From a virus (Duplodnaviria > Heunggongvirae > Uroviricota > Caudoviricetes), in IMG/VR virus record IMGVR_UViG_2654587736_000008: a stretch of DNA of 42,353 nucleotides; one strand, 5' to 3'. Positions 23,290 through 33,953 of this stretch are shown piece after piece. Under the pieces are notes generated by a model, which saw nothing but the letters and a program-made list of their open reading frames with translations, had not been told where the DNA came from and made no database searches. Numbering within the stretch: position 1 is the stretch's first letter; each line of letters begins with the position of its first letter. The translations under genes were made by a program, and so were the position numbers.

Positions 23290-23808
23290 CTACTTCTTCA
23301 GAAATGATTCGATGAATTCACGTCGAGGATGACGATAGTTCAGAATATCTTCTGGCATCCTCATAAAGCGGTTGTTGCCGTCTTTGGCAGTAACAAAACA
23401 GCTGTGAACTCCGCAGACATCCGTTTTGATCGTGTCGCTATACTCAAAAAGCAACTGAGCCATCTTCTCTTGCCATTCTGGAGGCATAGCCTCCATGAAT
23501 ACTCGCGGCATCACGCAGAACGACGCATGCGTAAGACCAAACCACAGTTGCAGGTCTTTACGATATTCTTCATCCATCGTCTTTACCTTTGTTGCAATAA
23601 AAAGCCCCGCGAATGCGAGGCTAAATCCTAGTGTTTGTGATGACTGGCTCTTATCTAAACGCAGCCCCTTACCGCGCGCCAAATGCTCAACTTTAAGCAT
23701 CAGCAATGAGATGTTTAATCTGGATTCACTCCAGAAGTGATCACCACCCTGTCTACAGAGCCAGATGTGAAGGATGATGAGTAAAATTATCTCTATCATC
23801 GAAGGCAT
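23290..23808 (-). CDS. Hypothetical protein in the bor position (moron candidate), N-terminal hydrophobic segment
   Basis: 172-aa ORF after Rz; relatively AT-rich; no recognisable family. Confidence 0.45.
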
Positions 23809-24263
23809 TGCGTCCTGATATATTCCTGAAGCGTTCTCAGTGCTGTCTGGTCTCTGATGATTCCGTCCCGGATACCGAGAACGTTTCGTCCAGCAACTGG
23901 AGAGAGTTCGACGGTGGCATCATTGCCCATGCCGGAGGCGCTGGAGGTTTCGGCTGAGGATGGCACAGAGCATTTTCCTTTGACGAGCACCCGACCACCA
24001 TTATCAAGCTTGCGCCGAAGAGCATCATTTTTAGCTTTCGCATCAGCCAACTCCTTCGTGTATTTAGCATCGAGTACATCAGCAGCACGCTGGCGTTGCT
24101 GCATGTCAGTAATGGTGGCGGTCGCCTGCTTCAGCTCACTGACTTTTTTATCACGCTGTTCTTTGTAGGCGATGGCGTTATCACGGTAATGATTGACCGC
24201 CCACGACAGGCAGACGATGGTGCAGATAACCAGAGTATAAATAATCGCTGCGACTCTGCTCAC
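23796..24263 (-). CDS. Rz: Spanin inner-membrane subunit Rz (i-spanin)
   Basis: N-terminal TM ([19 protein letters not shown]), coiled-coil body, C-terminal Cys; GTG start overlapping endolysin stop (TTG at 24278 also possible). Confidence 0.8.
23837..24043 (-). CDS. Rz1: Spanin outer-membrane lipoprotein Rz1 (o-spanin), embedded in Rz in the +1 frame
   Basis: [21 protein letters not shown] lipobox followed by Pro-rich [11 protein letters not shown]. Confidence 0.8.
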
Positions 24264-24793
24264 TGATCTATCCCCCAACAGGCTAATGCGCTTTCCTGGT
24301 CACGACGAATAACCTGTCCATAGCAGTTATTTGAACGTATGCGGCAATCGCGCCCACCATCTTTTATCCACCAGCGAATCGCCTCGCATGCGCCCTTACG
24401 ATCACCGGCATTCAGCCGCTTATAAAACGTCGACGGGAAACACTTACCGGGGCCAATGTTATAGGGACAGAATGACGCTATACCCGCTTTCTGTGGTTCG
24501 GTCAGTGGTACTTTAATATTGCGCTCTACCCATGCCAGCGCCTTATCACGTTCAATAGCGTTAACCTGGTCGCATTTTTCCTTCGACAGCTTCATTCCCG
24601 GTATGACGGGCTTACCATCCACCATTGTGGCACCCCGACAGATGGTCCAGATGCCGGCCCCATCGCGGTATGCCGTTGTGTGGTTACCTTCTTTTTCATC
24701 CAGAAACTGGTCGAGAATATCAGGCGCGGGCGCACCGACGGCAATCAGTGCCAGAACGGCAGCCGACAGGCCGTATCTGATTTTTGCGTTCAT
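24260..24793 (-). CDS. R: SAR endolysin (T4-lysozyme-like, GH24)
   Basis: 177 aa; N-terminal signal-anchor-release-like segment ([16 protein letters not shown]), then lysozyme-like body resembling phage 21 R. Confidence 0.8.
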
Positions 24794-24856
24794 GGATATT
24801 TATCAGGATTTATCGGTTTCTGCCCACGGACAGGTTTATCTGTTCCGGTCAGTGAC

Positions 24857-25207
24857 TTAAGGTTGTGATTCCGGAGGAGTCTTCAGAGAACCAGTAATTC
24901 TTCCTGGTAGCTTTCCTTTGTAGGTTATCCACACATTCTGCGCCTCTAAAATTACGGGGCGCTTTTCCGGCGACTGCTCATCCCCTTCACATAACCCGGC
25001 AGCAACATCCAGGAAGACCTGTCTGATGCTCCTTCTGGCTGCTGCCTCATAAAACTCCAGCGCGGCACCTTCAACACGGTCCAGCGAGATGTCCAGGTCA
25101 AAAATTTCACCGTCAAAGCGTTTTTTGTCCCGTAACGCTAAAGTTACCGTAACTTTATTCTCAAAATTGCGGATCCCTTTCACAATCACTTCATAGTTTT
25201 GAGTCAT
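24857..25207 (-). CDS. Hypothetical protein inserted between holin and endolysin (116 aa)
   Basis: SD GGGGAGAG upstream of ATG 25207, 4 nt after the holin stop; soluble, acidic; no recognisable family. Confidence 0.55.
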   Translation of the reverse strand: MTQNYEVIVKGIRNFENKVTVTLALRDKKRFDGEIFDLDISLDRVEGAALEFYEAAARRSIRQVFLDVAAGLCEGDEQSPEKRPVILEAQNVWITYKGKLPGRITGSLKTPPESQP

Positions 25208-25211
25208 TGAA

Positions 25212-25427
25212 TTACTCTCCCCGTGCAGCCTTACGCTTGTCTTCTTTAATCTTGAAATAAAGGTTTGTCAGATACGTCAGCAAGCCAAATACCAGACTAC
25301 CCAGCACACCTATTGCCGCCCACTGTGAGGGCGTGACTTTATCGAGCAACTGTAAAAACCAGTACCCGGCACTACCTGCTGAGGTGCCATAGGCGACACC
25401 CGTTGTTAACTTATCCATGGATTTCAT
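25212..25427 (-). CDS. S: Pinholin, phage 21 S-like (class II holin) with dual-start motif
   Basis: [29 protein letters not shown]...[22 protein letters not shown]; two Met codons (M1, M4) as in S21 holin/antiholin. Confidence 0.85.
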
Positions 25428-25462
25428 AACCCCACCTCGCAGATGCGGGTGCTGTGTAATGG

Positions 25463-25488
25463 AAATAAAAAGGCCACCTGACGTGGCC
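25463..25488 (-). terminator. Intrinsic terminator between methyltransferase gene and holin
   Basis: Minus strand GGCCAC-GTCAG-GTGGCC followed by TTTTTATTT. Confidence 0.65.
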
Positions 25489-25494
25489 ACCAGA

Positions 25495-26547
25495 TTATTT
25501 CCCCACCAGCTCGTTTATCTCTTTCACTGTCTGGTTAAACCGCTCTGACTCAAGCTCAACACCTAAGGCCCGACGCCCCAGCGCCATTGCTGCTTTTATT
25601 GTGGAACCGGATCCCATAAAAAAATCAGCAACCAGATCACCTGGTCGACTACTGGCATTGATTATTTGCCTGAGCATATCCGCCGGTTTCTCACACGGAT
25701 GTTTCCCCGGGTAGAACTGAACGGGTTTATGCATCCAGACATCGGTATAAGGCACGGAGACTGATACGGAGAAATAGCGCCGGAGAGATTTAAACTCATC
25801 CAGCAATTCAGAATATTTGCGATTCAGTGAATCATAAGATGCCACCAGCTGGTGGTGTGGTTGTTCCAGTTGTTGTTCCTGAAACTTCTCTGCCGCTATA
25901 CGGGAAAACAGTGCCTGTAACTTCCGATAGTCAGCCTCATTCGGCAACTGCCACTGACTGGCACCAAACCAGTGGGAAACCATATTTTTCTTACCTGTGG
26001 CTTCGGCAATTTGTTTTGCCGTTATACCCAGTTCGGCACGAGCATCCCTGAAATACGAAATCAGCGGTGCCATTATGTGCTGTTTGAGTTCCCTTTCTTT
26101 TGCCGCATAGCCGTCACTTTTGCCGCGATATGGCCCCTGGTAATGTTCAGCAAACAGAACGCGCTCTGTGGCAGGAAAATATGCACGCAGACTTTCTTTA
26201 TTACACCCATTCCAACGTCCGGACGGCTTCGCCCAGATGATATGGTTAAGCACGTTGAAACGTTCACGCATCATGATCTCAATATCAGATGCCAGGCGAT
26301 GCCCACAGAACAGGTAAAGGCTTCCGGCAGGTTTTAACACCCGCCAGAACTGGGCCAGACAGTGGTCCAGCCACTTAAGGTAATCTTCGTCCCCTTTCCA
26401 CTGATTGTCCCAGCCGTTGGGTTTCACCTTGAAGTACGGCGGATCGGTAACAATCAGGTCAATGGAATCATCAGGCAGGGACTGAATAAAATGCAGGCAA
26501 TCAGCGTTGATTAAATCAACACTGTTTATTTTTACAGTATTTTTCAT
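25495..26547 (-). CDS. DNA N6-adenine methyltransferase, beta-class (DPPY before FxGxG), orphan
   Basis: 350 aa; motif IV VTDPPYF near the N-terminus and SAM-binding DFFMGSGST near the C-terminus; no adjacent restriction gene. Confidence 0.8.
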
Positions 26548-26697
26548 GGATCAGTAAGCGTAACTCTGGTAGGCTCACTCTGCTTTTGCGCTAAAGCAGT
26601 GGGCCGTGGTTCGCTTGTGACCAGTAAGCATGAGCGAATGGCTGGCAGGTGCTACCAACACCCACCAGCCGCCCATTTTCACAGCAGGAAACCGCCA

Positions 26698-26925
26698 TTA
26701 CTGGCAGCGTCTGAATTTATTCCCGTACCCGCCGTTATCCTTCGCCAGACCCGCCAGAACTAACTGAGTCAGTATTAACTGGCACCGGGCTTCGCTTACT
26801 CCGGTAGTTCTCGTCATCATGCGTGGCGTTACCCACTTGTCAGCAGGTAAGAAATGAAGGACTGCGGCGGCGGTTTCTGTCATATCTTGCTGTTTTAGCA
26901 TGTCTTTTTCCCTTCTGGTTAACAT
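26698..26925 (-). CDS. Small wHTH-like protein, hypothetical (75 aa)
   Basis: ORF immediately upstream of the methyltransferase; alternative start at 26901 with SD AAGGGA. Confidence 0.4.
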   Translation of the reverse strand: MLTRREKDMLKQQDMTETAAAVLHFLPADKWVTPRMMTRTTGVSEARCQLILTQLVLAGLAKDNGGYGNKFRRCQ

Positions 26926-27023
26926 GACATACCAATAACTCTTGTCTAAAAAGCCAGCAAGATAAAAAGTCAGTATTCACGACCACCAGCGTGTTTACTG
27001 TACTGCACCAAGTTTACAGGTAC

Positions 27024-27046
27024 AAAAAAAACCGCTCAGCGGCGGG
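27024..27046 (-). terminator. Intrinsic terminator (candidate tR'-like)
   Basis: Minus strand CCGCTGAGCGG hairpin followed by eight T. Confidence 0.5.
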
Positions 27047-27079
27047 TTTAAGTTGTGTGGCGAAGTAACCACTCTTAAC

Positions 27080-27107
27080 AGCATATTTGATTTTTTACGA
27101 TTGTAAA
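27080..27107 (-). promoter_or_regulatory. Candidate sigma70 promoter on the late strand (possible PR'-like), about 45 nt upstream of the terminator
   Basis: Minus strand TTTACA-N16-TATGCT. Confidence 0.3.
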
Positions 27108-27172
27108 CGGTTGATTATTCATCTCCAATAAAAATAATTGTGTGGGTATACCCTTAGCAATGGATAAGAAAC

Positions 27173-27619
27173 ATGAATAAAATGACTGTACTATTACTTA
27201 GCGCAACTATCATTTCAGGTTGTACTTCTTCCGTACCATTGATAAAGAAAACTCAATCAGGAAAACCTGAGGGGGTTTATCAAAATACGACAAAAGATAA
27301 AGTCAAAGATGCCCTTGTGAATTACTGCAATAGTAGAGGGTTGATAATTTACAACGCGGATAACAGCAGTGTTATATGTGGTAAAGAACTGGAAGGCGGC
27401 TCTGCTGTTTTTGGACAAATGTTAATCGGAAATGCCTATTCAACAACCCCGGTATCAAAAGTCAGATTTACTATCGCTCAAGTTAATAACGATACAAAAG
27501 TGTGGGCCGATATGTGGATGGAAACTCAAATGGCAATGGGGCAAGTACAACAAATGGCTATAACAGACAACGCAAGCAAAAACACTATCCAACAACGTCT
27601 TGATGAATTAAAACCTTAA
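27173..27619 (+). CDS. Lipoprotein, hypothetical (moron on opposite strand)
   Basis: 148 aa; signal peptide with lipobox LLSATIISGC; gene and flanks are AT-rich; opposite strand to Q and the late genes. Confidence 0.7.
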   Translation: MNKMTVLLLSATIISGCTSSVPLIKKTQSGKPEGVYQNTTKDKVKDALVNYCNSRGLIIYNADNSSVICGKELEGGSAVFGQMLIGNAYSTTPVSKVRFTIAQVNNDTKVWADMWMETQMAMGQVQQMAITDNASKNTIQQRLDELKP

Positions 27620-27639
27620 GTAAACTAATTAAATAAAAT

Positions 27640-27661
27640 GGGGAGAATAAATCGACTCCCC
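27640..27661. terminator. Hairpin between convergent lipoprotein and Q genes
   Basis: GGGGAG-N10-CTCCCC; on the minus strand it is followed by ATTTTATTT. Confidence 0.4.
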
Positions 27662-27703
27662 ACACATTAAACTGATTCAATTACCCCCTCAATAAGAGGT
27701 CTT

Positions 27704-28069
27704 CTAACGATCCATCTCTAGCTCAATTTCTAACATCATTAACATGCCATCAACTACACCTTCAGCCTTTTGCAATAAACGCCCAACCCAGCAATCAGAA
27801 CGCCCATGTTTACGGGCAAGCGCCATAAACGTCATACCACCTACATAATAATCCACTAATAAATCGTGCAAATCGCTGTTGTTCTTTTTCAGGCGAGCCA
27901 TGCACCCACAAATGATCATCGCGTCATCGTCACAACATTGCGGGCGGGATTTTACTTTTGAAGGGATTAGTCCTTTAAATCCTGCAGCAATAGACGACCA
28001 GGTGACATCCTCGTGATTATTTGCCACCCATGCCCCCCAACGTTCAAGAACCATTTGAATATCACGCAT
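27704..28069 (-). CDS. quuD: Late-gene antiterminator Q (phage 21 / QuuD-type)
   Basis: [14 protein letters not shown]...[18 protein letters not shown]...[11 protein letters not shown], as remembered for DLP12 QuuD; ATG 28069 with SD GGAG (ORF track begins at a TTG 28084). Confidence 0.8.
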
Positions 28070-28086
28070 CAACTTTCTCCACAAAA

Positions 28087-29082
28087 TCAGGCCAGCACGC
28101 CAATTGCCAGCGCACGATCGATAAAACGAAATATCAGCTCCAGTTGGGAGCCATACTTCTCTTCAAATGCCACGGTATCCGCATGCAGCTCGTCGTGATG
28201 CTTTCTGCACAAAGGCAACACAAAAAGGTCATGCGCTTTTGTTCCCATTCCACCCTGACCGTGACCTATCAGGTGGTGGGGATCATCAGCAGGCTTTCCA
28301 CAACATGCACACGGCTGTGTCTTAACCCAGCGCGTGTACTTTTCATTAACCCAGCGGCGACGTTTTGGGCGTAACATAAAAGACTCCGGCGACTCTGGAT
28401 CCACTTTCAGCGCCAGCACCTTTTTCGCTTTATCCTGGATGATGCTGGTGGCAGGAACCGAAGGCACAAGGTCACTTTCCCGGGTGACAGACGGCACAAC
28501 AGGCTTCGGTAATCTCAGTGCCTTACGGGCTGCACTTTCCGGTAAGGCATCCGCCAGGTCATTACGAATCAGCCACCAGCACAGTTCCGGCATTGTCACA
28601 ACGTGACTGTCATCAAAACCGAGATCCCGACGCACAACAGACAACACCCAGCGGGTACAGTTATCCGTTGCCATTGATTCCAGCCGTTCCGTGAACTGAT
28701 CGCGCAGCTGGTTATCGCAGTGCCAGCACAGACGGATTGCGCCCGGCGTGTGTCGCATTGTGGTCATGTTCTCGCTGTGCCAGTCGGAATGAGGCCACTG
28801 GCAACCTTTTTCACGAAGTAACCAGCGTTCAAGACATTCCACTCCACCAGCACGACGGATCACTGCCTCATTGCGGAACACGGCCCGAACGGCAGGATCA
28901 TCCGCCAGCGGTTGTGATGCCGCCGGAACGGCACCACTGGCGAAAGATGAATAACGTTCCGGCTCAGGCTCCAGCAGAACACGCCCCTGCATAAACAGGG
29001 GCATCAGCTCTGAACCTGGCCTGAACAATACGATCCCCATACGCGGGGCAATTTCAGGGGTCAGTAGTGCTCTCACGGTCAC
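28087..29082 (-). CDS. DUF968 family protein (HNH-like Cys/His C-terminal motif)
   Basis: 331 aa; C-terminal [21 protein letters not shown]...CRKHHDELH; start uncertain (GTG 29082 or downstream ATG). Confidence 0.65.
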
Positions 29083-30302: not shown

Positions 30303-30625
30303 ACTTTCAGGCCTCTCTCATGTAACCAGTGGGTTGCACGCAGCCTGGCGTTTTCCTCACCGGCAAGCAGTGAGCGGATAATCCCGACCGCCTCGCTGTC
30401 GTCGTCCTTCACCGCGGTATGAAGAGTGATACCCCGGGCCACGCCACGCTTTATCGTGATGACGCCTTTTTTCTCCAGTGCGCGAAGATGTTCCACCGCT
30501 GCATTCACTGAACGGTATCCCAGCATGGTTGCCACCTCCTGATTGGTTGGCGGGAAGCCACGTTCTTTCTGATAAGAAATCAGCATATCCAGCACCTGCT
30601 GCTGGCATTGAGTTAACGTCGTCAT
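30299..30625 (-). CDS. LexA-type N-terminal DNA-binding-domain protein (no peptidase domain)
   Basis: 108 aa; LTQCQQQVLDMLISYQKERGFPPTNQEVATMLGYRSVNAAVEHLRALEKKGVI resembles the LexA wHTH; ATGA overlap with the upstream gene. Confidence 0.55.
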   Translation of the reverse strand: MTTLTQCQQQVLDMLISYQKERGFPPTNQEVATMLGYRSVNAAVEHLRALEKKGVITIKRGVARGITLHTAVKDDDSEAVGIIRSLLAGEENARLRATHWLHERGLKV

Positions 30626-31275
30626 GCCGCCATCTCCCTGAGCAGTTTTTCCGCCTGCTGGCGAACCTGCGCCAGAAACGCCTCACCACATGCCTCAAGT
30701 TCATCGCGCCCGATGTAGCTGATTGCCGGTCCCTTCCAGGTCTTGTCAAAAACAGCAATAGCACCAGCGAAGAAAGCTCCTGTCGGCACCTGCTTCTCGT
30801 CTTTCGGGATAAACCAGACAGGCAGTTCAAAACCAATACGCCCGCGAATAAAAGCAATATGATCTGCATCTTCCGGCCACCACACTTCGCTGGTGGCCGC
30901 TTTGATCAGGAAAACATAGCGCCCGCCCTTATCACGCATGACACTGGCATGTTTCATGATGTAACGCATGCCGGTGATGTATTGCCCCTCATGCTGACTG
31001 GCGCGGCTGTATGGGGGATTACCAAAGGCAGCACCTTTAAGCTCCGCAAGACGTTCTGACCAGTCATGCGCCAGCGCGTTATCTTCCGCCGTGTAATACG
31101 CGGCACATTTGGCGTTATCACCGTCAGTAAACAGATCCAGAACAAACGGGCCAAACAGGGTGTTAATTCCCCAGAAAATGTTGTCCGGCGTGCGCCACTG
31201 ATCGCCCACTTCCTTCAGTTCATGGGCTGGTTTGTTCCGCAGTTCCACCAGCGCCTGGCAATATTTATTACTCAT
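30622..31275 (-). CDS. Phage Dam-type DNA N6-adenine methyltransferase (NPPY family)
   Basis: Start MSNKYCQALVELRN at ATG 31275; FGNPPYS motif. Confidence 0.75.
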   Translation of the reverse strand: MSNKYCQALVELRNKPAHELKEVGDQWRTPDNIFWGINTLFGPFVLDLFTDGDNAKCAAYYTAEDNALAHDWSERLAELKGAAFGNPPYSRASQHEGQYITGMRYIMKHASVMRDKGGRYVFLIKAATSEVWWPEDADHIAFIRGRIGFELPVWFIPKDEKQVPTGAFFAGAIAVFDKTWKGPAISYIGRDELEACGEAFLAQVRQQAEKLLREMAA

Positions 31276-32805: not shown

Positions 32806-33953
32806 TTGCGCCCCCTTACCTCTGAAGGGTTCAGCGACAAATTTATGAGGCAGGCCAGTGCCGAAGCATCATTAATATAGTCATACAAGCTAACAGCCAG
32901 CGGAGATTCGGCTTTTGCCAACATAGGATAAAGCTGCTGCAGCCAGACCTGATGAATTGATGAAATGTAGGAATAGAGAACGCTGGCGTTATGTGCAACG
33001 TCGCTCAGTACAGAGGGATTTGAAAGCTGTTTCTCCATCTGGTTAAAGGCATTGATGTATGCCTCTTTGAACTGGGCAGCACGTTTACCCGTGAAACCCA
33101 TAGCAAGAAACGCAAAGCCGTCGCGGGTTATTTGATAGCAAGGTAGTTTGCGGCCTGTGCAATCGGTGTAATCACTCGCCGAAAAATTGCGGGAAGTGAA
33201 TGATGCAGAGCATTCAAGCGTGCGGATCTTTTTCAGTACATCGTCATGACGTTTGGAGAAGAAGTTGGCAACAGCCAGGGATGAAGTAACAGCCTGACCA
33301 TCAACGATGGCAATTTCAGGTTGAGTGAGGGTTGGGATCGTAGCCATGATGGCAGCCTCTTTGGTGATTTTTAATAACTCACCACCAAGGCTTTCCACGA
33401 CCTTATTGGTGGTGAGACGTACAGGGGTGGAAATACCGGTCACCAAAGAACCCGGCCCAACCGAAGTTGGCCCTGCACGCCCCACCATAATTTGGGCGTA
33501 ATGCTGCTCATTACACAAAAAAACCGCAAGAGCGCGGTTGTGCGCTTTGGTGAATTCCGAGTTTCCACGCCCGGCACCCGCTTTATAAGGTGCCTGAACA
33601 GTGTAACGTCCCGGAATGGCAGAATCAATGTGCTGGTGGTCCTTCACACTCAACAAAATCACGCCTGAATTTCCACAAAGGACTAAAGCACTCATGCGGG
33701 TAGTCTTTGCGAAGATAGATAACGCGCTGTGTTTCTGGCTCCCAACGAATAACATGGACATAAAGCCCTCTTCCGTCACGAAACCAGCGGTTAAGTTCCT
33801 GCACAACTCGCCCCCCACAGTCAGGTAAAGTTCTCTGTGGTTACTTACAGCCAAGTGATTTGGTAATCTGCATTCATGCCGTAACAACAGGTGTTCAGCG
33901 ACACTGACCACCAGCTGTTGCGACAAACGGTTATTTGCCGTTAAACTGTTCAT
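32802..33953 (-). CDS. Rha-family phage regulatory protein with a ~200-aa N-terminal extension (alternative start ATG 33348)
   Basis: pRha domain (IAIVDGQAVTSSLAVANFFSKRHDDVLKKIRTL...YQITRDGFAFLAMGFTGKRAAQFKEAYINAFNQMEKQL) in the C-terminal half; the ORF is open to ATG 33953, which overlaps the upstream stop (ATGA). Confidence 0.6.
   Translation of the reverse strand: MNSLTANNRLSQQLVVSVAEHLLLRHECRLPNHLAVSNHRELYLTVGGELCRNLTAGFVTEEGFMSMLFVGSQKHSALSIFAKTTRMSALVLCGNSGVILLSVKDHQHIDSAIPGRYTVQAPYKAGAGRGNSEFTKAHNRALAVFLCNEQHYAQIMVGRAGPTSVGPGSLVTGISTPVRLTTNKVVESLGGELLKITKEAAIMATIPTLTQPEIAIVDGQAVTSSLAVANFFSKRHDDVLKKIRTLECSASFTSRNFSASDYTDCTGRKLPCYQITRDGFAFLAMGFTGKRAAQFKEAYINAFNQMEKQLSNPSVLSDVAHNASVLYSYISSIHQVWLQQLYPMLAKAESPLAVSLYDYINDASALACLINLSLNPSEVRGRK

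Follow-up and report, generated by a model that had tools for sequence, protein, structure and literature searches.

A probable Q-controlled orphan adenine methyltransferase cassette, with a structured RNA leader, in the late operon of a lambdoid Escherichia coli prophage

The DNA analysed here (the window; IMG/VR record IMGVR_UViG_2654587736_000008) is a stretch of 42,353 nucleotides (nt) from a lambdoid Escherichia coli prophage whose late genes lie on the minus strand. Between the late promoter pR' and the holin gene, it carries a small winged-helix gene and a gene for a beta-class N6-adenine DNA methyltransferase, flanked on both sides by terminator-like hairpins. Homology and sequence comparison indicate that this region is probably the promoter-proximal part of the late operon, and that it holds an orphan methyltransferase cassette of the M.EcoGII type, probably expressed late in dependence on the antiterminator Q. 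An earlier note on this DNA had offered the reading of a Q-dependent late methyltransferase gene conditionally, provided that Q-modified RNA polymerase reads through both terminators. The homology of the promoter to known pR' elements, the start mapped in prophage Sakai Sp5, the family of the Q gene and the comparison of loci back that reading, including the orphan state of the enzyme, and every feature that the note named was found at its coordinates on the minus strand (Table 1). The cassette and its gene layout are already present in databases and in the literature, so that the finding as first written is ordinary and adds one prophage to a well-documented class. The parts worth following are a structured RNA leader ahead of the methyltransferase gene and, to a lesser degree, a promoter-like block ahead of the small gene. 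Both had been omitted from the earlier note, and either could bring Q-independent control.

The methyltransferase gene and its probable late promoter

The open reading frame (ORF) of the methyltransferase matches the Pfam family PF01555 (N6_N4_Mtase) with an E value of 2e-42 over profile positions 1–220 of 221. Its DPPY motif (residues 35–38) precedes FMGSG (residues 310–314), and this motif order agrees with the Pfam match in upholding the assignment to the beta-class N6-adenine enzymes (DPPY before FxGxG). BLASTP aligned the protein (350 amino acids, aa) with M.EcoGII (349 aa) over the full length, with 281 of 349 residues identical (81%); the M.EcoGII sequence used for this comparison was read by machine from the PMC11551740 supplement. 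Clustering at 90% identity places the protein in a group of 4060 members, and its gene has no Shine-Dalgarno (SD) sequence. Its neighbours are the winged-helix ORF, a lipoprotein gene, the holin gene and a DUF1327 gene. The statement that no restriction partner is present was borne out, as PADLOC gave no matches in these neighbours and the RefSeq annotation of an identical region holds no restriction gene.

M.EcoGII, a commercial enzyme, is notorious for its toxicity during cloning. Murray et al. (2018; PMC5778455) have described it as a sequence-non-specific adenine methyltransferase encoded on a prophage of E. coli O104:H4, silent in the lysogen and during normal growth and harmful once expressed. 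Like the enzyme of the window, M.EcoGII and M.EcoGI (both from E. coli O104:H4 prophages; PMC5778455) are prophage-borne orphans of the beta-class family; the pR'/Q context, the winged-helix partner and the leader RNA are not described in that paper. An alternative is that the methyltransferase acts in the epigenetic control of phage or host genes, or is the leftover half of a degraded restriction-modification system, as its orphan state and its best PADLOC match, the Type II methyltransferase model MTase_II (E 3e-152), might suggest. This appears very improbable. Neither a restriction gene nor a remnant of one adjoins the methyltransferase gene in seven closely inspected loci or in annotated phage records, the fixed place in the late operon fits the modification of DNA about to be packaged, and the lack of sequence specificity reported for M.EcoGII (PMC5778455) suits broad protection over site-specific regulation.

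A prophage that matches the window with 100% identity over 25200–28100 has, in its early region, a second orphan gene to which RefSeq gives the name "phage N-6-adenine-methyltransferase". By offset from L284 25423–26076, this putative gene falls at about 30620–31275 (-) of the window; going by the annotation of the prophage with the identical region, the phage would then carry two adenine methyltransferases.

The candidate promoter of the earlier note, TTTACA-N16-TATGCT, is not above chance as a match to the sigma-70 consensus, for which the scan found 9 sites with 10.2 expected. It is counted as real because it is conserved and homologous to characterised pR' promoters, not because of its hexamers. 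The promoter element is 79–85% identical to the pR' elements of 933W, H-19B, Sakai Sp5 and DLP12. Positions 27108–27026 of the window show 85% identity to the DLP12 element upstream of essD, and the promoter-hairpin element shows 79% identity to the 933W regions annotated "homologous to pR'" and "homologous to tR'" and to H-19B. Just past the -10 hexamer, the sequence TAAGAGTGGTTAC does not vary among the seven aligned phages and prophages with PF06530-type Q genes, and positions 27050–27079 are the probable Q-loading and pause region. The Q gene matches the Q21 chains 6p18/6jnx of the PDB (E 7e-9) and has 83% nucleotide identity to DLP12 quuD; the Q genes of the window and of 933W both belong to PF06530, the Q21 family.

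Sy et al. (2020; PMC7547250) have mapped the PR' transcript of Sakai Sp5, with a primary start from differential RNA sequencing (dRNA-seq), a 3' end that Term-seq put at +258 and, at +173, an RNase E cut between GU and AUU. In the Sp5 sequence (L091), these three positions fit one arrangement only, with the start at the A seven bases past TATCAT (L091 946), GUAUU at 1117–1121 and a strong terminator at 1176–1205. Because the spacings fit only there, the mapped Sp5 promoter is the homologue of the promoter in the window, and A27073 is the equivalent of its start. The Shiga-toxin (Stx) phages 933W, H-19B and Sakai Sp5 thus have in common with the window the promoter, the initially transcribed region, the first hairpin and the Q family. 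After the first hairpin Sp5 continues with the StxS body and a strong terminator, whereas the window holds the whole cassette and lacks the 3' part of StxS. A reading of the window as a StxS homologue was rejected: only the promoter and the first ~50 nt of the transcript are shared with Sp5 and 933W, and the 74-nt 3' part of StxS, which contains the rpoS-binding seed and ends at the +258 terminator, is not found in the window.

The cassette is regarded as an insertion in the late leader because DLP12 has the pR' element near essD without a cassette. The gene order in DLP12 is quuD, nmpC (opposite strand), pR' and essD, and it has in common with the window the Q family, an opposite-strand cargo gene, the pR'-hairpin element and an S21-type holin, the holin gene being 94% identical to essD at the nucleotide level. 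The DLP12 element ends 105 nt before homology to the essD leader resumes; at this place the window holds 1.58 kb (27025–25444). The arrangement pR'-6S RNA-tR' of lambda is likewise one of a constitutive late promoter, nearby termination and readthrough by Q-modified polymerase, although the Q family differs. Morons in the late operons of lambdoid phages are also comparable, as extra genes with their own terminator inserted in the late leader, although a moron is by definition driven by its own promoter.

The two terminator-like sites and the cassette in other phages

The first of the two terminators proposed to enclose the cassette, the T8 terminator, consists of a hairpin at 27043–27031 with a short stem of 4–5 GC pairs and a T8 run at 27030–27023. 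Most related loci have a hairpin with a T-run at a distance of 87, 100 or 130 nt ahead of the small ORF, with stems that differ and compensate. The hairpin of the window is counted as real because of this conserved position with compensating stems, not because of its fold. The hairpin and T8 run named in the earlier note are present and conserved, while the fold is weak and the homologous site in Sp5 is read through. The Sp5 homologue, at +25 to +50, folds with -14.9 kcal/mol as against -7.5 kcal/mol in the window. The stable products of Sp5 are the 258-nt StxS precursor and a 74-nt fragment, which end at the +258 terminator (PMC7547250), and because they end there, at least part of the unmodified transcription passes the first Sp5 hairpin. 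The published mapping places the tR' of Sp5 (L091 960–1325) at the second terminator, +258, and not at the first hairpin. GenBank record Y10775 gives the label tR' to the first hairpin. Annotations that name the first hairpin of this pR' family tR' may be wrong.

The second terminator has a hairpin at 25488–25472 followed by a T-run (-12.2 kcal/mol, z -2.2). The stop codon of the methyltransferase gene lies 7 nt ahead of it and the holin ATG (25430) 33 nt beyond it, and both fold and position agree with the description of a second strong terminator immediately ahead of the holin. The T8 site may leak, and it may be the terminator past the methyltransferase gene that effectively holds polymerase back. 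Lysogens could then contain a little methyltransferase mRNA, with the second terminator shielding the cell from the holin; more generally, cargo in the late-leader slot may undergo some low-level transcription in lysogens. In a stronger form of this account, pR' transcripts cross the cassette constitutively and stop past the methyltransferase gene, where the functional tR' would lie; the SD-less structured leader would silence the methyltransferase post-transcriptionally, and Q would be needed only at the second terminator. This seems rather unlikely, although it is consistent with the Sp5 pR' 3' end at +258, beyond a homologous and stronger hairpin (-14.9 versus -7.5 kcal/mol), with the second terminator of the window being the stronger one, and with the pairing of the leader with the translation start in three divergent sequences. 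However, the T8 run of the window is perfect, and most genera have kept a hairpin and T-run at this position while the stems changed in a compensating way, which speaks for selection to terminate there. In addition, a product of ~50 nt would escape the published Northern probes, so that partial termination in Sp5 is possible.

The same cassette is found in many other phages and prophages. Many E. coli chromosomes, as well as the phages PhiR40_1 and PhiR55_1, contain a 2.9-kb region of the window with 99–100% identity, and the segment 27048–25433 has 91–99% nucleotide identity to SfV (orf47-orf48), cdtI, mEp460 and Ayreon. The SfV record (GenBank U82619) has the identical order of terminator, small ORF, methyltransferase, terminator and holin, and rho-independent terminators are annotated on both sides of the two-gene cassette in the SfV and Ayreon records. 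Unlike the window, with its PF06530 gene, the phages SfV, mEp460 and Ayreon have a lambda-type Q (PF03589 for SfV), and the holin types differ too. Homology to these lambda-type-Q phages ends exactly at 27048, the 5' edge of the first hairpin. The hairpin and T-run are doubled in Ayreon (L002 4373–4416 and 3699–3737) and mEp460 (L003 4644–4675), where the second copy follows just after the Q gene and additional genes lie between the copies. Because homology stops there and two copies occur in Ayreon and mEp460, the hairpin is also regarded as a module joint, and the comparison suggests that the doubled terminator may serve as a recombination joint for the insertion of cargo.

A scan across genera, with one genome per species, gave 80 Enterobacterales loci with 56–93% protein identity. 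In the seven loci inspected in detail, the upstream gene was a Q gene of PF06530, PF03589 or PF06323, or a DUF1133 gene, and in five of the seven the downstream genes were co-oriented holin, endolysin and spanin genes. The Xenorhabdus and Morganella loci have toxin-antitoxin-like and cold-shock-like genes downstream. These loci provide good comparative evidence, from gene order and homology, for a Q-controlled late transcript with the cassette as its first expressed cargo. Phage 1720a-02 carries, one after another, Q, pR', the hairpin, the small ORF, the methyltransferase gene, three tRNA genes and stx2A. In Sp5, the +258 terminator has behind it 36 codons left over from the 3' end of the methyltransferase gene (68% identity, E 4e-15), and then tRNAs and stx2. 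Because of these two gene orders, the methyltransferase slot is taken to be the stx slot of the late transcript, which means that in Shiga-toxin phages the stx site and the methyltransferase site are one late-leader slot. Because the methyltransferase remnant directly follows the Sp5 terminator, the StxS region has probably replaced most of the cassette there.

The mechanism that can be proposed for the window is inferred, in each of its steps, from homology or sequence. The promoter pR' would fire constitutively, with a start at about A27073 by homology to Sp5. Without Q, polymerase would halt in part at the weak hairpin and T8 run ~25–50 nt downstream, and polymerase that leaked past would traverse the cassette and halt at the stronger terminator just past the methyltransferase gene, leaving the holin silent. 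After induction, a Q of the PF06530 type would load at pR' and both terminators would be read through; the winged-helix protein, the methyltransferase and the lysis and virion proteins would then be made late. The late methyltransferase would modify adenines of the progeny DNA ahead of packaging and, if a non-specificity like that of M.EcoGII holds, this DNA would be guarded from many restriction enzymes in the next host, the toxic enzyme being confined to a cell already doomed. As a second safety layer, the leader would pair with the SD-less start region and keep translation low until a signal opens the fold.

Several observations weigh against Q-dependent late expression of an M.EcoGII-type enzyme. 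The fold of the T8 hairpin (-7.5 kcal/mol, z -1.4) is not above that of shuffled sequences, and strict Q-dependence of the methyltransferase mRNA is uncertain because the stronger Sp5 hairpin is read through. A hairpin with a T-run 23–29 nt past the methyltransferase stop codon, with varied stems, occurs in only about 15 of the 80 loci. The promoter-like block described below, possibly a weak self-regulated promoter or operator, could drive Q-independent transcription of the cassette. As for the enzyme, its presumed non-specificity is an extrapolation from a relative with 81% identity, to which the machine-read origin of the reference sequence must be added.

The RNA leader of the methyltransferase gene

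The spacer of ~150 nt that separates the small ORF from the methyltransferase ATG is conserved above the level of the flanking genes and can be folded into two domains. The first contains a 12-bp helix, P1 (GGCUGGUGGGUG/CACCUGCCAGCC), with the extension AUGGG/CUCAU. In the second, GGUCA..AAGCG pairs with CGCUU..UGAUC abutting the AUG and encloses a long hairpin (P3). In a MAFFT alignment (n = 27), 87.7% of cells are paired, compared with at most 45% when the partners are slid; 12 pairs are changed on both sides, and none of 500 shuffles reaches these values. A local hairpin, UUCGCU/AGCGAA, which is a rival of the closing helix, also covaries, one of its pairs being CG in 10, AU in 5, UA in 5 and UG in 4 sequences. 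Minimum-energy folds of three divergent leaders gave a common architecture, with z values of -3.6, -4.8 and -2.9, and in all three the closing helix is predicted to pair with the SD-less start region. In sequences ranging from Escherichia to Proteus and Morganella, compensatory changes have preserved the leader. In 56 of 92 sources a covariance model found a single copy of it, whose end coincided in every case with the start of the methyltransferase gene, and it is present also at loci without the small ORF.

The leader matched nothing in Rfam 15 at the gathering threshold, and permissive filters gave only matches at chance level (E >= 1). A full-text search of the literature with sequence strings of the leader brought up nothing relevant and one unrelated paper. 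The possibility that the region encodes a leader peptide was rejected for want of a conserved reading frame: ORFs from the ATG in AAATGGGCG have 34, 17 and 4 codons in the window, in Proteus and in a locus of the C5 type described below, respectively.

A search of viral contigs that started from the leader RNA, and not from the protein, returned 161 instances of the leader upstream of an N6 methyltransferase gene. Five further instances, in three sequence variants, lie upstream of a gene for a C5-cytosine methyltransferase (SVCSGIE...GGTPCQAFS), a family that is not homologous to the N6 enzyme. They are found on the contigs L120/L124, L176/L222 and L245, and at these loci the closing helix, GGUCAU/AUGACC, holds the start codon itself. 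The other matches of the search, nine chance matches of a loose pattern within coding DNA and four truncated loci, were set aside.

From these comparisons the leader is read as a translational gate for toxic methyltransferases. That it represents an undescribed class of cis-regulatory RNA for phage DNA methyltransferase genes, gating the translation of a toxic enzyme, is put forward tentatively and at slightly less than even chances. Candidate signals for the opening of the fold include a metabolite like S-adenosylmethionine or S-adenosylhomocysteine (SAM/SAH), processing of the late transcript, and folding kinetics that differ under Q-modified polymerase. Riboswitches and RNA thermometers are likewise 5' leaders of several helices that pair with the translation start and are tied to one functional class of genes, but no Rfam family matches the present leader. 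If the leader is a regulatory switch, it would be a new RNA class; it would also explain how prophages silence a promiscuous methylase and might be of use as a tool for controlled expression.

The small gene, the promoter-like block and other features

The small wHTH-like ORF reported ahead of the methyltransferase gene occupies 26698–26925 (-), and a 67-aa protein from the ATG at 26901 is most likely, its N-terminus MLKQQDMTETA being invariant among homologues. The ORF is judged to be real because its homologues keep their place directly upstream of the methyltransferase gene; this holds for about 55 of the 80 loci and down to ~35% identity. The suggested fold received support from an AlphaFold2 model (pLDDT 87), which predicts a winged helix of the order helix-helix-helix-strand-strand. 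The best Foldseek matches of the model are TrmBL2, IclR N-terminal domains and Zalpha (TM 0.81), and homologues in other sources carry the name TrmB family. The recognition helix, RCQLILTQL, is invariant. The loop of a hairpin, GCUGCC-AGUAAU-GGCGGU, at 26682–26709 (-) contains the stop codon of the small ORF. In the relatives L021 and L027, this hairpin is followed by a T8 run and forms a third terminator-like site, in the interval between the small ORF and the leader RNA.

About 60–70 nt upstream of the small ORF lies a block, CTTGCTG-N12-AGAGTTAYNTGTRTGTCA. Of 88 loci, in genera from Escherichia to Xenorhabdus, 63 have it as a single copy on the same strand, and none has it on the opposite strand. 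The block accompanies the small ORF and not the methyltransferase gene. It has the geometry of a promoter, but its -10-like hexamer has no T at -7, and between 27023 and 26547 no consensus sigma-70 promoter passes the scan. RNAalifold found zero conserved pairs in the leader of the small ORF, which includes the block. Pairing of CUUGCUG with CAGCAAG of the small ORF was considered and rejected: it fits sequences of the E. coli type and is broken in Xenorhabdus and Enterobacter. To our knowledge, the block also fits none of the sites of sigma-54, sigma-32, sigma-E, sigma-28, CII, LexA or DnaA.

The block would have its place in an account of the cassette as an autonomous moron, in which the genes between the terminators are transcribed independently of Q from a weak promoter of their own (TTGCTG-17 bp-TAYNTG, with a start near 26925) and the winged-helix protein controls this promoter by binding the adjacent conserved block. 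The -35-like hexamer, a spacer of fixed length and variable sequence and a conserved -10-like region followed by CA would suit such a promoter, as would the occurrence of the block once and on one strand in the 63 loci and its conservation without an RNA structure to explain it. An invariant recognition helix would match an invariant DNA target, and terminators stand on both flanks, the cassette having its own at 25488–25463. Nevertheless this account is unlikely, and more doubtful than constitutive passage of pR' transcripts through the cassette. The missing T at -7 and the failure of the site in the promoter scan speak against it, as do the report that M.EcoGII is not expressed in the lysogen (PMC5778455), the many loci that keep terminator, leader and methyltransferase without the small ORF or the block, and the co-orientation of the cassette with the late operon throughout.

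Table 1. Features of the late-operon region of the window (all positions are those of the window)
Feature	Positions	Strand	Basis
Antiterminator Q gene, 126 aa	27704..28084	-	Pfam PF06530, E 2e-51; Q21/933W/QuuD family
Opposite-strand cargo gene, 148-aa predicted lipoprotein	27173..27619	+	ORF; PHROG 3152
Late promoter pR', TTTACA-N16-TATGCT	27080..27107	-	Scan and homology; inferred start A27073
Conserved initially transcribed region, with TAAGAGTGGTTAC at 27077-27065	27050..27079	-	Alignment of 7 sequences
First hairpin and T8 run ("T8 terminator"), left cassette boundary	27023..27049	-	Scan and conserved position
Promoter-like block, CTTGCTG-N12-AGAGTTAYNTGTRTGTCA	26925..26961	-	63/88 loci
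Small winged-helix gene, 67 aa, SfV orf47 homologue	26698..26901	-	PHROG 331; AlphaFold2
Structured RNA leader of the methyltransferase mRNA	26548..26680	-	Covariation, covariance model, folding
Beta-class N6-adenine DNA methyltransferase, 350 aa	25495..26547	-	PF01555; M.EcoGII 81%
Second intrinsic terminator, right cassette boundary	25463..25488	-	Scan, fold, SfV/Ayreon annotation
S21-type pinholin, dual start MKSM, first gene of the lysis cassette	25212..25430	-	Pfam PF04971, E 2e-35
Remaining lysis cassette: DUF1327, lysozyme, Rz spanin	23796..25207	-	Pfam PF07041, PF00959, PF03245

The opposite-strand lipoprotein gene between Q and pR' has no Pfam family and is followed by a hairpin (27661–27642) that is bidirectional in appearance. 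In cdtI, 569R4 and mEp460_4F5 this slot is taken by other genes on the opposite strand, and in DLP12 by nmpC. Judged from these gene orders, the interval looks like a cargo hotspot that parts Q from its promoter. In the lysis cassette, the DUF1327 gene (ydfR-like; 24857–25207, -) sits between the pinholin and lysozyme genes, as it does in mEp460.

A tRNA scan of the window found none. At 33405–33593 (-), two Rfam families scored above their gathering scores, the C4 antisense RNA with 83.6 bits and the isrK Hfq-binding RNA with 62.5 bits. These matches point to a putative antirepressor control region of the P1/P7 type elsewhere in the prophage.

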